DNA of 64,000 nt, from positions 2,864-66,863 of the forward strand of contig JAFWXS010000047.1 in the NCBI GenBank assembly GCA_017517925.1. Direction: 5' to 3'. Numbering within the stretch: position 1 is the stretch's first letter; every line of letters starts with the position of its first letter. Origin of the DNA: Bacteroidaceae bacterium. Its GTDB lineage: Bacteria > Bacteroidota > Bacteroidia > Bacteroidales > Bacteroidaceae. The notes under the pieces are model-generated. The model searched no databases. It was not told the DNA's origin and saw nothing but the letters and a program-made list of their open reading frames with translations. Of the stretch, positions 30,268-61,283 are shown piece by piece. A program made the position numbers and the translations under genes.

Positions 30268-30716
30268 AATTCATTTACATTGTTATTTATTATGTTTATA
30301 AGCTCCATAAACAGATTGTAATCCATGGCTCCTCTAGCAGAAAATGATGTAGGTTTAACAGTAGAATAATCTGCAATGATTATCCGTTGGTCTTCCCTAA
30401 AAATTAGTCCGTGCGCAATGGAGTTACGCAAATGTGATAAAAATGATAGGACTTTATCCTTATTTTTAGATTTAGTGAAACAAATTTTATTTTTGAATGT
30501 ACTCAAGTCTACTTTTTGGATTTCCCTTAACCCTGTTTTCGATAGTTCTAAATTCCCAAGAAATAAGGGAAGAATGTGTACTAATTGAGGATGACAACGA
30601 TATACATCTTCTAAAGCATAGAAAAACCCAAATCCGCCCTTTTCATACATACAGATAAAACGATAAAGATCCTTTACCTCATCTTTTGTAAAGCCATTGA
30701 TTTCTTCTTGTTTCAT
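30264..30716 (-). CDS. Hypothetical 150-aa protein with an R-x4-H (HEPN-like) motif
   Basis: The motif LSHLRNSIAHGLIF (R97...H102, nt 30411-30428) matches the HEPN Rx4-6H / RNxxAH signature. The gene is AT-rich, cytoplasmic in type, and first in the three-gene unit. Confidence 0.6.
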   Translation of the reverse strand: MKQEEINGFTKDEVKDLYRFICMYEKGGFGFFYALEDVYRCHPQLVHILPLFLGNLELSKTGLREIQKVDLSTFKNKICFTKSKNKDKVLSFLSHLRNSIAHGLIFREDQRIIIADYSTVKPTSFSARGAMDYNLFMELINIINNNVNEL

Positions 30717-30801
30717 AGTTGCCTAAATTCTTGCCTACCACTCTCCCCGCTTCAGCATTAAGTTAATACTACGGTTATGGATCCTGTTCACGTAGGGACA
30801 T

Positions 30802-30843
30802 AAAAAAGACGTGGGAGAAACTTTCTTGCTTATCCCAATCGTC
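30802..30843 (-). terminator. Intrinsic terminator at the 3' end of structured-RNA copy 1
   Basis: The RNA reads GACG-AUU-GGGAUAAGC-AAGAAA-GUUUCUCCC-A-CGUC followed by UUUUUU. Confidence 0.6.
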
Positions 30844-31225
30844 CGGCCTTCGCATTGCCTATGTACAAGGATAAGCAACTCAGCCAGCCCACGCCGTGCG
30901 GTTTATAAACAACCATCGCCTATGGCACTGCGCGAGATTTTTCACTTCGTTCAAAATGACAAATTTGTTCAGAATGACAAAGCGAGGCCTCGCGGCCATA
31001 GGTTAGGGGTAATAAACGCCCGAAGTGGACGCTTCGTTGCGGTATCTTCTTGTACATAATCAAAGTTGCGAAGTTTGACGATCAGAAGATAACGTTCAGA
31101 AAACGTCCTTTTCCTGCTCCTCGGCGAGGCTCGGTGCTGACGCGAAGTCTGCGGTGAGCGATGCGCTCTCAAAGCACGGAATCCAATATGTCTTGACCCA
31201 CCCATCCCTTGCGAGCTGGCTGAAT
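30802..31225 (-). ncRNA. Candidate structured noncoding RNA or cis-regulatory leader, copy 1 (~420 nt), family unknown
   Basis: It has its own TAnnTTTG box upstream, a terminator at the 3' end, no credible ORF, and a diverged paralog at 60686-60978 that keeps the same helices. Confidence 0.6.
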
Positions 31226-31230
31226 CGCAG

Positions 31231-31238
31231 CAAATGTA
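31231..31238 (-). promoter_or_regulatory. -7 box TACATTTG for structured-RNA copy 1
   Basis: Exact TAnnTTTG match on the minus strand. I did not find a clean -33 TTTG at the canonical spacing. Confidence 0.45.
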
Positions 31239-31299
31239 GTAAATAATTAGGAATTAGGAGTTAGATTTTACAAATTATTCATAAAAATTGCCTTTGGCC

Positions 31300-31607
31300 C
31301 CTTGCTTTTCCCCTACGGGCCAGCGACCTAAAGGTTCGGGCGGCGAACACGTTTCACGGGAAATTCATGGAAATTCATGTTTTAAACGCAAACCGAAGTT
31401 CGCATGAAACAAAAAGCTGTGGGGAACTTGAATATTTTTATAATACGTTTCCCTGCGCGGTAGTTAGTGAGGTATTCCGCGGTAATTAGCGAGGTACACC
31501 GCGATAGTTAGCGAGGCATTCCGCGGTAGTTAGCGAGGTATACCGCGATAGTGTCATCCAGAACGAAGTGAACCTTTAGGTCGCTGGCCCGTAGGGGAAA
31601 AGCAAGG
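31300..31607. repeat. Perfect 38-bp inverted repeat (31300-31337 / 31570-31607) enclosing 232 bp; MITE-like or cruciform element
   Basis: CCTTGCTTTTCCCCTACGGGCCAGCGACCTAAAGGTTC and its exact reverse complement. Confidence 0.9.
31456..31553. repeat. Tandem array of 4.5 copies of the 22-bp unit CGCGRTARTTAGYGAGGYAYWC
   Basis: The units lie at 31456-31477, 31478-31499, 31500-31521, 31522-31543, plus a partial unit at 31544-31553. Confidence 0.9.
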
Positions 31608-58862: not shown

Positions 58863-60452
58863 TTACTTCATCACTTTCTTCACCATGCCACCCTGCTTGA
58901 TGATATAAATCTGGGGTGTAGCATCTGTGGTGTAGATACGCTGGCCTGCAAGGTTGTACATCTCTACCTCTTCATTGTTGTCGGCATCAACCATATCCAC
59001 AGAGGAAGCCTTCTGTGCCAAGTCATAGATGTTAACCTCCACTACGTTAGAGGGAGCCGACTCGCCTGTTGCATAAACCGCACAGATCCAAACCTTACAA
59101 TCAGGACCTGATCCCAAGCTTACATTCTGATAGGTGTCAGGGTCATATTCTGTATTCTCAAAGTTGGTCCACCAGAATCCCTGCTTGGTTTCCCATGCAT
59201 TCACATTGTTGTAGACACCGGTCTTCTCCTCAGCAGTGAGGCCGTAGGTATAGCCTGTGCTTGCATTGTATGAACTTCCAAAGTCAACATATACCTTATA
59301 CTCGGTAATGTCCGAAGCCTCGGCGGGAACATCCCACTTCATGTTCAACTCATAGTATGTGCTTACATATCCGTTATTATCATAATCAACCTTCTTGGCA
59401 CCCAGTATCTGGAAGTTCTGCATGGGGAGGTTACCCTCGTCCTTCACGCTCACTACAGTAAAATCAGAGATGTTCTTCTTCTCGCCATTTACCACAGCAA
59501 GAACTGCCACCTGATGTTCACCGTCGAGGAGCATGGGAGTTGTGTATTCGGTTGTTTCTACCTCGACCACATTGTTGTCATACATTACTACATAGGTGGT
59601 AGCACCAGCTACGGCATCCCATGTCACCTTCACCAAGTTACCCTTGAGTGCCTCGGCCTTTACGTTGGCAGGAATCAATGATGCGTCCAATGTTGCATAT
59701 ACATATCTCCACTCCTTTTCAGTCACGCCATAGCGAGAGCTTGCCCATTCTGTTTTGGTCTTTGTCATGCCGTTCTCATAGGTATATGTGGTCTTACCTT
59801 GCAGTGTTGACCACTCCTGACCCTCACCCAAGTTAGGATTATAGTAGGCCTGTGTCATCTCAATCAAATAGCTATTCGCGTCGTAAGTATAGAACTCACC
59901 AAGACCCTTTGAATCGAACTCGCCTGTAGAATAGTTCTTATTCATCTGAATCCTTGACACGAGTTGTTTGTTCTCATTGAAAGTAAGTTCGTAGTGCACC
60001 TCATAGGTAGCCTCTCCCTCTGCATTAGTGTTCTTCATCACCTTGTAATGGCCATTCTCGAATTCCTCAAAAAGTTGACCGCCTGTCGATGTCACCTCAC
60101 CAGCCTGATCAAGGTATTGTAATGTAATCTCTGTGTTGTTGCCTTGGGTATCATACTTGTAAGTGGCAATCTGAGACTTGTAGAAAACACCGCTTGTATT
60201 CCATGTCTCTTTGGTGGCTACAGTACCGTTTTCGTTATAGGTGTAGCGATAATGGCCATAGGCACTGATTTCAATAGCCATCTTGTTGTTACTATCATAG
60301 TAATAGCAGTTAGAAGTCTCATACACCGGCTCCTCCAGTTTTTCTCCTGTAGTAGCATCGAGTGTGTTGTAGCCCTTCTGCTCCACAAGATACTGAGCCG
60401 AAAGACTTGTTGCAGCCATTACGGCAGCGAAAAGAAGTAAAGTTTTCTTCAT
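58863..60452 (-). CDS. T9SS-secreted protein with YD-like repeats and Fn3-like region
   Basis: 529 aa with a signal peptide. It carries repeated YxYDxxG/YTYENG motifs. The C-terminus (MYNLAGQRIY...IYIIKQGGMVKKVMK) looks like a Por secretion tail. Confidence 0.8.
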   Translation of the reverse strand: MKKTLLLFAAVMAATSLSAQYLVEQKGYNTLDATTGEKLEEPVYETSNCYYYDSNNKMAIEISAYGHYRYTYNENGTVATKETWNTSGVFYKSQIATYKYDTQGNNTEITLQYLDQAGEVTSTGGQLFEEFENGHYKVMKNTNAEGEATYEVHYELTFNENKQLVSRIQMNKNYSTGEFDSKGLGEFYTYDANSYLIEMTQAYYNPNLGEGQEWSTLQGKTTYTYENGMTKTKTEWASSRYGVTEKEWRYVYATLDASLIPANVKAEALKGNLVKVTWDAVAGATTYVVMYDNNVVEVETTEYTTPMLLDGEHQVAVLAVVNGEKKNISDFTVVSVKDEGNLPMQNFQILGAKKVDYDNNGYVSTYYELNMKWDVPAEASDITEYKVYVDFGSSYNASTGYTYGLTAEEKTGVYNNVNAWETKQGFWWTNFENTEYDPDTYQNVSLGSGPDCKVWICAVYATGESAPSNVVEVNIYDLAQKASSVDMVDADNNEEVEMYNLAGQRIYTTDATPQIYIIKQGGMVKKVMK

Positions 60453-60685
60453 AATGTAAATGTTTTTGTTAGTAAAGTTAGTAAATAGTGGTTATATATA
60501 ATATAATATCTTCAAGCATTGAATCAAATAGACACAACGGAAGTTGTGCAAAGGGAATCATGAACTTTTTAGTTCATCAACTGTTGTAGGTTTGTATTGC
60601 AGAGTAGCTTGAATGGTGTTTTATAGTGTCCGCCGATGCCCAATACGGAGATATTATCGTGCTATATTCTTCCATTATACATAAC

Positions 60686-60721
60686 AAAAAAGCGGGGCAC
60701 CCCACTTGCTGCTTATCCCGC
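60686..60721 (-). terminator. Intrinsic terminator at the 3' end of structured-RNA copy 2
   Basis: The RNA reads GCGGG-AUAA-GCA-(GCAAGUGGGG)-UGC-CCCGC followed by UUUUUU. Confidence 0.55.
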
Positions 60722-60978
60722 GTCCAAGGCTCTCGCATTGCCTAAACCAGTCTGGATAAGCAACACAGAAGCCCACGCCGATATGTATAATATACCACAC
60801 TCCACATCCGTGGAGATTCTCAGTGGCAATTAACACATCACGTAGACATCTACCGTTGCTCTGCTTTGACTGGTTTCTTAGAATTTGCGAGATTCTGGAT
60901 CGCCAAAGACAAAACGTCAAGTAAACGTCTTTCTCATTATGTATACCGCCCACCCTCGAAGCCCGTCGGGATGAACGA
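60686..60978 (-). ncRNA. Candidate structured noncoding RNA or cis-regulatory leader, copy 2 (~290 nt), family unknown
   Basis: It has a canonical promoter (60984-61014) and a terminator, no credible ORF, and it is collinear with copy 1 (30802-31225) with compensatory helix changes. Confidence 0.65.
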
Positions 60979-60983
60979 TGTGG

Positions 60984-61014
60984 CAAAAGTAATGCAATTT
61001 GAAGAAAAAACAAA
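60984..61014 (-). promoter_or_regulatory. Bacteroidetes-type promoter: -33 TTTG, 19-nt spacer, -7 TACTTTTG
   Basis: The minus strand reads CATTTG-(19 nt)-TACTTTTG. It lies downstream of the tRNA-Asn terminator, so it starts an independent transcript. Confidence 0.55.
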
Positions 61015-61110: not shown

Positions 61111-61113
61111 TTG

Positions 61114-61187
61114 CTCTTCGTCTTGGACTTGAACCAAGGACCCTCTGATTAACAGTCAGATGCTCTAACCGACTGAGCTAACGAAGA
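61114..61187 (-). tRNA. tRNA-Asn (anticodon GTT), copy 1
   Basis: The reverse complement is TCTTCGTTAGCTCAGTCGGTTAGAGCATCTGACTGTTAATCAGAGGGTCCTTGGTTCAAGTCCAAGACGAAGAG, which folds as a canonical cloverleaf. Confidence 0.95.
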
Positions 61188-61209
61188 ATATTCTAACCCT
61201 TAAATCTTG

Positions 61210-61283
61210 CTCTTCGTCTTGGACTTGAACCAAGGACCCTCTGATTAACAGTCAGATGCTCTAACCGACTGAGCTAACGAAGA
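61210..61283 (-). tRNA. tRNA-Asn (anticodon GTT), copy 2 (identical sequence)
   Basis: The same 74-nt sequence, 22 nt upstream of copy 1. Confidence 0.95.

Follow-up and report, generated by a model that had tools for sequence, protein, structure and literature searches.

In transcriptional riboswitches of the ON type, such as the pbuE/ydhL adenine riboswitch, the helix that closes the sensor uses the 5' strand of the terminator, and a loop-loop contact organises the fold. The UpxY/opsX systems of Bacteroides have short pause sites with a pause hairpin, situated 9-42 nucleotides (nt) from the upxY start with outliers to 111 nt; the ops-like pause site is a YGCGNAGCR hairpin of the non-template strand, shortly upstream of the gene for the NusG paralog UpxY (PMC11685472). 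FopS is short, with a single-stranded 5' (R1) seed and a terminator, acts in trans on susC mRNAs, and is described by an Rfam model (PMC11697453). Here we analyse 64,000 nt of DNA from a Bacteroidaceae bacterium (assembly GCA_017517925.1, contig JAFWXS010000047.1, positions 2,864 to 66,863; hereafter the window), which carries two copies of a leader RNA on its minus strand. Both copies are members of a multi-copy family of structured leader RNAs, about 260-430 nt long and widespread in Bacteroidales.

With moderate confidence we infer that this leader would act as a conditional terminator, allowing read-through only when its 5' end is paired with an internal strand (C0:G1) and a conserved helix, P3, is closed. 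The folds, the covariation that maintains them, and the alternatives that we weighed are set out below.

A family of leader RNAs with covarying helices

Homologues were gathered by scanning one genome per species for an exact pattern, which fixed the 5' arm of helix P1. At least 120 loci matched, nearly all of them in Bacteroidales (Prevotella/Segatella, Bacteroides, Parabacteroides, Paraprevotella, Muribaculaceae, and Paludibacteraceae), and single genomes can carry several; the leader occurs in Phocaeicola as well. Family counts refer to 115 distinct homologues in the alignment, 111 first genes, 98 spacers between leader and gene, and 40 diverse full-length members, with transcription starts placed from the -7 box.

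Nearly all homologues have a TAnnTTTG box, the Bacteroidetes -7 element, 190-380 nt 5' of GGCGTGGGC, and a U-tract closes the 3' end of nearly every one. CCCACGYC followed by at least four U is found in 115 homologues, giving the G+C-rich stem and U-tract that characterise an intrinsic terminator. The next open reading frame (ORF) lies on the same strand and typically starts 50-100 nt past the U-tract. The sequence-only reading of this DNA had seen no TAnnTTTG box in the 87 nt that separate the copy 1 U-tract from the next start codon (ATG, 30716), and had suggested that the operon may depend on read-through; the box is indeed absent there, and among the 98 spacers of the family only one contains it. 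We conclude that the leader is, to judge from these signals, a structured transcript with its own predicted promoter box and intrinsic terminator, and because nearly all spacers lack a promoter box and a same-strand ORF lies close by, expression by read-through is plausible, in copy 1 and family-wide.

From the strand G1 to the U-tract, both window copies and 81 of the 115 homologues fold as a single long hairpin, P1-P2-P3-P4, with a minimum free energy (MFE) of -38.6 kcal/mol in copy 1 and -40.2 kcal/mol in copy 2. G1 (GGCGUGGG) is nearly invariant, lies just 5' of P3, and complements the strand C1, CCCACGYC, that precedes the U-tract. The resulting helix P1 (G1:C1) is paired in 99.6% of alignment cells across the 115 homologues; its 3' arm varies by wobble-compatible transitions only, and three lineages have compensated variants of its 5' arm, two of them combining U5>C with A99>G and the third G6>A with C98>U. 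P1 has 8 bp in copy 1 and carries a bulged U in copy 2. P3, which the sequence-only reading had identified as a conserved helix in both copies, is upheld by the alignment, being paired in 93.8% of cells, and both partners have changed at 6 of its 10 pairs.

RNAalifold on the 40 diverse homologues predicts a 5' domain in which Pa encloses Pb and a hairpin, Pc. Pairing of Pa reaches 93.4% in these members, and both partners have changed at five of its pairs. An Mpi-type recombinase site was considered in this domain and rejected, as the segment is explained by the covarying helix Pa. The loops of Pc (YYUCGCA) and P4 (UGCGARR) form a 7-bp kissing loop that is 100% paired in 40 of 40 members. Its two variable positions covary (AG/CU, GA/UC, CA/UG, GG/CC), with about two exceptions in 115 sequences, and the window copies themselves differ in this way (copy 1, CUUCGCA/UGCGAAG; copy 2, UCUCGCA/UGCGAGA). 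Covariation is seen in Pa, Pc, P3, and the Pc-P4 contact alike, as expected of a structured sensor domain. A divergent relative (L090:7609-7697) keeps GGCGUGGG, P3, and the terminator arm and has a different apical loop (GGUUUUGCUAUGACC), which suggests sub-classes with different kissing partners.

No earlier description of this RNA was found in Rfam or in a literature search that included its invariant strings and was incomplete in coverage. Scanning the window against Rfam 15 at gathering thresholds returned tRNAs only, a permissive scan of 30500-31400 gave no match even at E <= 10, and none was found over the leader element in 18 homologous loci; the ARAGORN scan for tRNA and tmRNA likewise found tRNAs alone. 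A covariance-model search revealed no third copy in the window. The leader had no match in a phage collection, and two Phocaeicola plasmids in a plasmid collection bear an unannotated copy. One of these, on the 95-kb Phocaeicola dorei plasmid NZ_CP072250.1 (L244, 54087-54179), has a change in the P4 stem (GGACAAUGCGAGAGCC), and a hypothetical gene starts ~70 nt downstream. Viral contigs yielded three matches, two of them informative P1 variants; a metagenome scan for P1 variants returned mostly chance matches in G+C-rich DNA and only four genuine lineages.

The genes that follow are varied and tend to cell-surface functions, capsule included. The 111 first genes comprise 10 encoding BspA-type LRR (LRR_5) proteins, which are the commonest kind, 5 NusG/UpxY-like, and 3 LytTR, together with outer-membrane barrels, DUF3575, glycosyltransferases, UDP-galactopyranose mutase, and many family-less lipoprotein-like proteins. 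At the loci with a NusG/UpxY-like first gene (L013, L019, L070, L096, L106) the leader thus also heads capsule-type loci, 5' of any ops-like site. One contig (L025) carries two whole leader-gene units in tandem, ~1.2 kb apart and followed by different genes. In Paraprevotella clara (L004:1546-1638) the leader is followed ~1.4 kb further on by a TPP riboswitch, which is unrelated to it.

Competing strands and a proposed two-condition terminator

A second stem before the U-tract, T, reuses the 3' arm of P3. In copy 1 it pairs GACG..GGGAU.AAGC with GUUU.CUCCC.CGUC, followed by U6, and it is the MFE of the 3' segment (-15.2 kcal/mol against -8.9 +/- 2.5 for shuffles; z = -2.6, equalled by 2 of 200 shuffles), which bears out the P3-overlapping terminator that the sequence-only reading had drawn for this copy. 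The corresponding stem drawn for copy 2 fared less well: it is feasible, at -10.3 kcal/mol as drawn and -13.1 kcal/mol when optimised in an isolated 40-nt piece, but shuffled versions of the 3' segment fold just as well (z = +0.19; 107 of 200 do so), and the stem is one option only. The MFE of copy 2 in context keeps P3 and adds a separate 7-bp hairpin, AAGUGGG-GUGC-CCCGCUU, abutting the U-tract.

Across the family, T joins the strand Gmid, CGUGGGA, to UCCCACG; 75.8% of its cells are paired, against 71.6 +/- 0.5% when shuffled, and three positions covary. Columns 69/99 hold U-A 64 times, C-G 15 times, and U.G 8 times (Fisher odds ratio 10, p = 6e-6, phylogeny being ignored); column 69 is unpaired in the long hairpin, and C-G at 69/99 occurs in at least six P3 sub-families. 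At most four T pairs can form in 29 of the 115 homologues. We conclude from the alignment that the T helix, by these statistics, is maintained and covarying in the family. The P1+P3 and T folds are predicted to be nearly isoenergetic family-wide (median difference -2 kcal/mol): 52 homologues prefer P1+P3, 30 prefer T, and in 25 the two folds differ by no more than 2 kcal/mol. The window copies prefer P1+P3, by 6.4 and 7.4 kcal/mol. Because both conformers place a stem before the U-tract, competition between P3 and T cannot by itself gate termination.

Two further strands take part. The first ~25 nt of the transcript, C0, complement G1 and the 5' strand of P2, and cognate C0:G1 duplexes are predicted to be more stable (-19.1 kcal/mol) than non-cognate ones (-16.7 kcal/mol, p = 1.5e-8) or those with shuffled 5' ends (-15.6 kcal/mol, p = 5e-11). 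The variable P2 part shows many distinct compensatory variants (GGCUGGCUG/CAGUCAGCC, GGGCUAACUG/CAGUUAGCCC, GGGCUGGCG/CGCCAGCCC, GGCUAAUG/CAUUAGCC). The duplex has 17 bp and -30.7 kcal/mol in copy 1 (31227->31211 with 30894->30876) and is weak in copy 2 (-11.8 kcal/mol). Alternatively, C0 can pair locally with a G-rich strand, G0, in a predicted hairpin, P0. The second strand, D, lies 20-33 nt before the start codon, a position that recurs in homologues, and complements the C1 linker and CCC; it changes between loci in step with the linker, and cognate C1:D duplexes (-9.7 kcal/mol) are again more stable than non-cognate ones (-7.7 kcal/mol, p = 1e-8).

We suggest that these pairings would operate as a relay. 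The C-rich C1 has three G-rich partners, namely G1 (in P1), Gmid (in T), and D, and the partner of G1 would be either C1 or the RNA's own 5' end, C0. Termination would be the default, through P1 while G1 is free and through T while P3 is open. RNA polymerase would read through only when C0:G1 has formed and P3 is closed together, the latter stabilised by the kissing loop. C1 would then be unpaired, to be captured in the full-length mRNA by D, which exists only after read-through. The choice between P3 and T would form one half of a two-condition gate, deciding over the terminator only once C0:G1 has formed, and an outside signal (a ligand, a protein, or an elongation factor) would bias the outcome.

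Modelled for copy 1, with the kissing-loop energy excluded, the three states lie within ~6 kcal/mol of each other: P0+P1 at -54.3, C0:G1+T at -60.4, and C0:G1+P3 with C1 free at -54.3 kcal/mol. The MFE of the C0:G1 state contains exactly the T hairpin drawn in the sequence-only reading. C0:G1 and G1:C1 are mutually exclusive and covary, and the terminator-free state is predicted to be costly; terminator states win in the minimal constructs of most homologues.

Several points weigh against the conditional terminator. The terminator-free state is predicted to lie a median of +10 kcal/mol above the best terminator state, and external input or stabilisation would therefore be needed. Folding the full-length RNA to its MFE gave mostly implausible long-range pairs and was uninformative, which is why the energetics were taken from minimal constructs. 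The 5' arm of P1 was preset by the search pattern, two variant lineages (L126 and L197) have a single uncompensated P1 mismatch each, and the family permutation and Fisher tests ignore phylogeny. The complementarity of C0:G1 or C1:D is weak in about a third of homologues, and wrongly placed transcription starts may account for part of this. The downstream genes vary more than a typical metabolite riboswitch would lead one to expect, and the RNA is described here from its sequence and predicted folds.

More tentatively, we suggest that the family may be an undescribed, order-wide class of leaders: an AND-gate conditional terminator with a relay of mimic strands (C0/C1 versus G0/G1/Gmid/D) and an inter-domain kissing loop, by which one global signal sensed by the RNA, or a dedicated antitermination factor, would control many surface genes (BspA adhesins, capsule loci, lipoproteins). 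Surface variation in gut Bacteroidales, of capsules, adhesins, and lipoproteins, is attributed to promoter inversion and NusG paralogs, and control at the level of RNA is barely charted. If the proposal is true, a new regulon and a new sensor RNA would stand in front of such genes. Several covarying helices competing for one terminator offer concrete targets for mutation (C0:G1, P1, P3, T, the kissing loop, and C1:D), and recognising the family would allow hundreds of stretches of microbiome genomes now called "intergenic" to be better annotated.

Alternative explanations

The predicted predominance of terminator states in most homologues, and a stem and U5-8 tract that look strong, would also suit a stable non-coding RNA that is constitutively terminated. 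C0:G1 would then be its closing helix, P1/T its terminator, and the alternative pairings a folding pathway, with the genes reached by leaky read-through or the RNA acting on D in trans, C1:D being an RNA-mRNA target pair. We think this unlikely, as the downstream gene is nearly always on the same strand and 50-100 nt away, 97 of 98 spacers are without a promoter box, D keeps a fixed distance from the ATG, and covariation maintains each of several helices that exclude one another.

A mechanism of the NusG-paralog type is a serious rival, although we judge it rather improbable. A UpxY-like specialised NusG paralog or an RNA-binding antiterminator would recognise the invariant motifs GGCGUGGGCU and GGCAAUGCGA, or the folded leader, and drive read-through by rendering RNA polymerase resistant to the terminator, with the RNA rearrangements secondary. 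GGCGUGGG and the P4 motif vary less than pairing alone would allow, but for G1 the two pairing partners are a further explanation. The first genes include the five NusG/UpxY-like ones and many others for capsule or surface, as in the RfaH and UpxY regulons (PMC11685472), but NusG paralogs are a minority among them, and no conserved neighbouring regulator gene turned up, a systematic search for one not having been made. The P4 loop of copy 1, UGCGAAG (30848-30854), shares 7 nt with the ops of the PSE locus of B. fragilis, CTGCGAAGCATA (PMC11685472); its covariation with the Pc loop points to an RNA-RNA contact, and for that reason we did not adopt an ops-like reading of it. It may have a dual role, as RNA contact and as ops-like element.

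The sequence-only reading proposed a riboswitch or attenuator of two helices, in which a closed P3 would remove the terminator and an open P3 would allow T. In its favour, nucleotides common to P3 and T keep the two helices from forming together, the 3' segment of copy 1 has T as its MFE fold, and T covaries in the family. We consider this model very unlikely. The two helices are indeed exclusive, but they make no on/off switch, since with P3 closed the same arm pairs with GGCGUGGG to form P1, as in the MFE of both copies and of 81 of the 115 homologues. In 29 of the 115 homologues T is limited to four pairs or fewer. A U-tract hairpin that does not overlap the conserved helix, which the reading had named as evidence against itself, is present in copy 2, whose terminator hairpin is autonomous. 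Finally, the downstream arms that it had called unrelated, CUCCCACGUC in copy 1 and UGCCC-CGCU in copy 2, are variants of one strand, CCCACGYC; the copy 2 arm is that strand less one base and still closes P1, with the bulged U, and the argument from unrelated arms that co-evolve rests on mis-homology.

That the element acts as DNA, as a MITE-like repeat or as a segment that could invert between C1 and D, the inverted repeat around the U-tract, would fit its multiple copies beside diverse, probably horizontally acquired genes, but is extremely improbable given the compensatory changes, G-U-compatible ones included, in strand-specific helices and the kissing loop, the fixed orientation relative to promoter box and ORF, and a C1/D repeat of only 6-10 bp that is locus-specific and unlike recombinase sites.

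The two copies in the window

Copy 1 holds every element of the proposed switch (Table 1), and its leader is followed by the 150-aa ORF, a 66-aa ORF, and the 1110-aa BspA-type LRR protein, in that order. Copy 2 is probably locked off or decaying: its first long ORF (529 aa; 60452-60686 interval, minus strand) begins 233 nt past the U-tract, against the norm of 50-100 nt, and this distance, together with the weak C0:G1 and the autonomous terminator, suggests that it is degenerate or uncoupled.

About 130 nt of copy 1 (~30900-31030, with 30950-30981 among them, minus strand) are missing from copy 2 and lie in the variable-insert region of the family. This insert contains a near-perfect 14-nt direct repeat (ttcaaaatgacaaa / ttcagaatgacaaa, plus strand) and a GGCCGCGAGGCC hairpin. 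Directly upstream of copy 2 lie two identical tandem tRNA-Asn(GTT) genes (61113-61187 and 61209-61283, minus strand).

Table 1. Parts of the two leader copies and associated genes, in window coordinates; arrows run 5' to 3' along the RNA
Copy	Feature	Position	Strand	Remarks
1	Promoter -7 box TACATTTG	31231..31238	-	TAnnTTTG type, from sequence
1	C0 CGAUUCAGCCAGCUCGC, RNA 5' end	31211..31227	-	Mimic of terminator 3' strand; candidate anti-terminator or aptamer-closing strand
1	G0 GGGAUGGGUGGGUC	31195..31208	-	G-rich mimic of G1; folds of 5' region
1	5' domain	31027..31108	-	Pa encloses Pb and hairpin Pc; RNAalifold
1	Pa, GGACGUUUU with GAAGCGUCC	31108->31100 with 31035->31027	-	
1	Pc loop CUUCGCA	31067..31073	-	Kisses P4 loop
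1	G1 and P2 5' strand	30876..30895	-	GGCGUGGG (P1 5' arm, 30895->30888), then CUGGCUGAGUUG
1	P3 5' arm UUGCUUAUCC	30869..30878	-	Conserved helix: 30878->30869 with GGAUAAGCAA, 30835->30826
1	P4, GGC-AAUGCGAAG-GCC	30845..30859	-	Apical loop UGCGAAG, 30854->30848
1	Gmid and P3 3' arm GACGAUUGGGAUAAGCAA	30826..30843	-	Partner: P3 5' arm or C1 (T)
1	C1 GUUUCUCCCACGUC	30808..30821	-	Linker and terminator 3' arm; partners G1, Gmid, D
1	U6 tract	30802..30807	-	From sequence; covariance-model match stops at 30804
1	D, GGGAGAG	30741..30747	-	25 nt before ATG; complements UUCUCCC of C1
1	First ORF, 150 aa	30264..30716	-	No Pfam match; ATG at 30716
1	BspA-type LRR surface protein, 1110 aa	26738-30070	-	Ends copy 1 gene string
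2	Promoter -7 box TACTTTTG	60984..60991	-	From sequence
2	Pc loop UCUCGCA	60886..60892	-	Complements copy 2 P4 loop UGCGAGA
2	P1 5' arm GGCGUGGG	60772..60779	-	
2	P3	60709..60763	-	Conserved helix: 60763->60754 with 60718->60709; encloses P4
2	P4	60742->60728	-	Loop UGCGAGA, 60737->60731
2	3' end	60686..60707	-	P3-independent hairpin AAGUGGG-GUGC-CCCGCUU, diverged C1, and U-tract
2	Diverged C1 GCCCCGC	60698->60692	-	U-tract 60691->60686

Comparison with known systems

Like GibS and FopS (PMC11697453), the leader is a multi-copy RNA of Bacteroidaceae with a promoter box of the sigma-ABfr type and an intrinsic terminator. Its architecture differs from theirs and it is without an Rfam match; identity with FopS/GibS was rejected on architecture. 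With the terminator-embedded aptamer of the HMP-PP (thiS) riboswitch (PMC6478431) it shares a conserved functional structure inside the terminator hairpin; the leader differs in being ~10 times larger and in docking its P3/P4 onto a separate 5' domain.

The leader resembles those of the RfaH/ops, UpxY/opsX, and LoaP systems (PMC11685472) in being a long leader before Bacteroides capsule and surface operons, and, as in UpxY systems, some family members stand directly 5' of NusG/UpxY-like genes. Unlike opsX, it is a covarying fold of 300 nt that ends in a U-tract terminator, and only a minority of its first genes encode NusG paralogs.

On gene coherence the family does not group with a riboswitch class, its first genes being diverse; nor does it match an Rfam family. 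The likeness to ON-type riboswitches is functional only: as in those, a helix, here C0:G1, would withhold the 5' strand of the terminator, and a kissing contact would organise the fold of the leader. Unlike the pbuE/ydhL type, the leader is much larger, with variable inserts, and precedes functionally diverse genes; it would have a backup terminator, T, to be suppressed by P3, and a strand, D, to capture the freed arm; and its kissing loop would join the sensor domain to the hairpin of the terminator domain.

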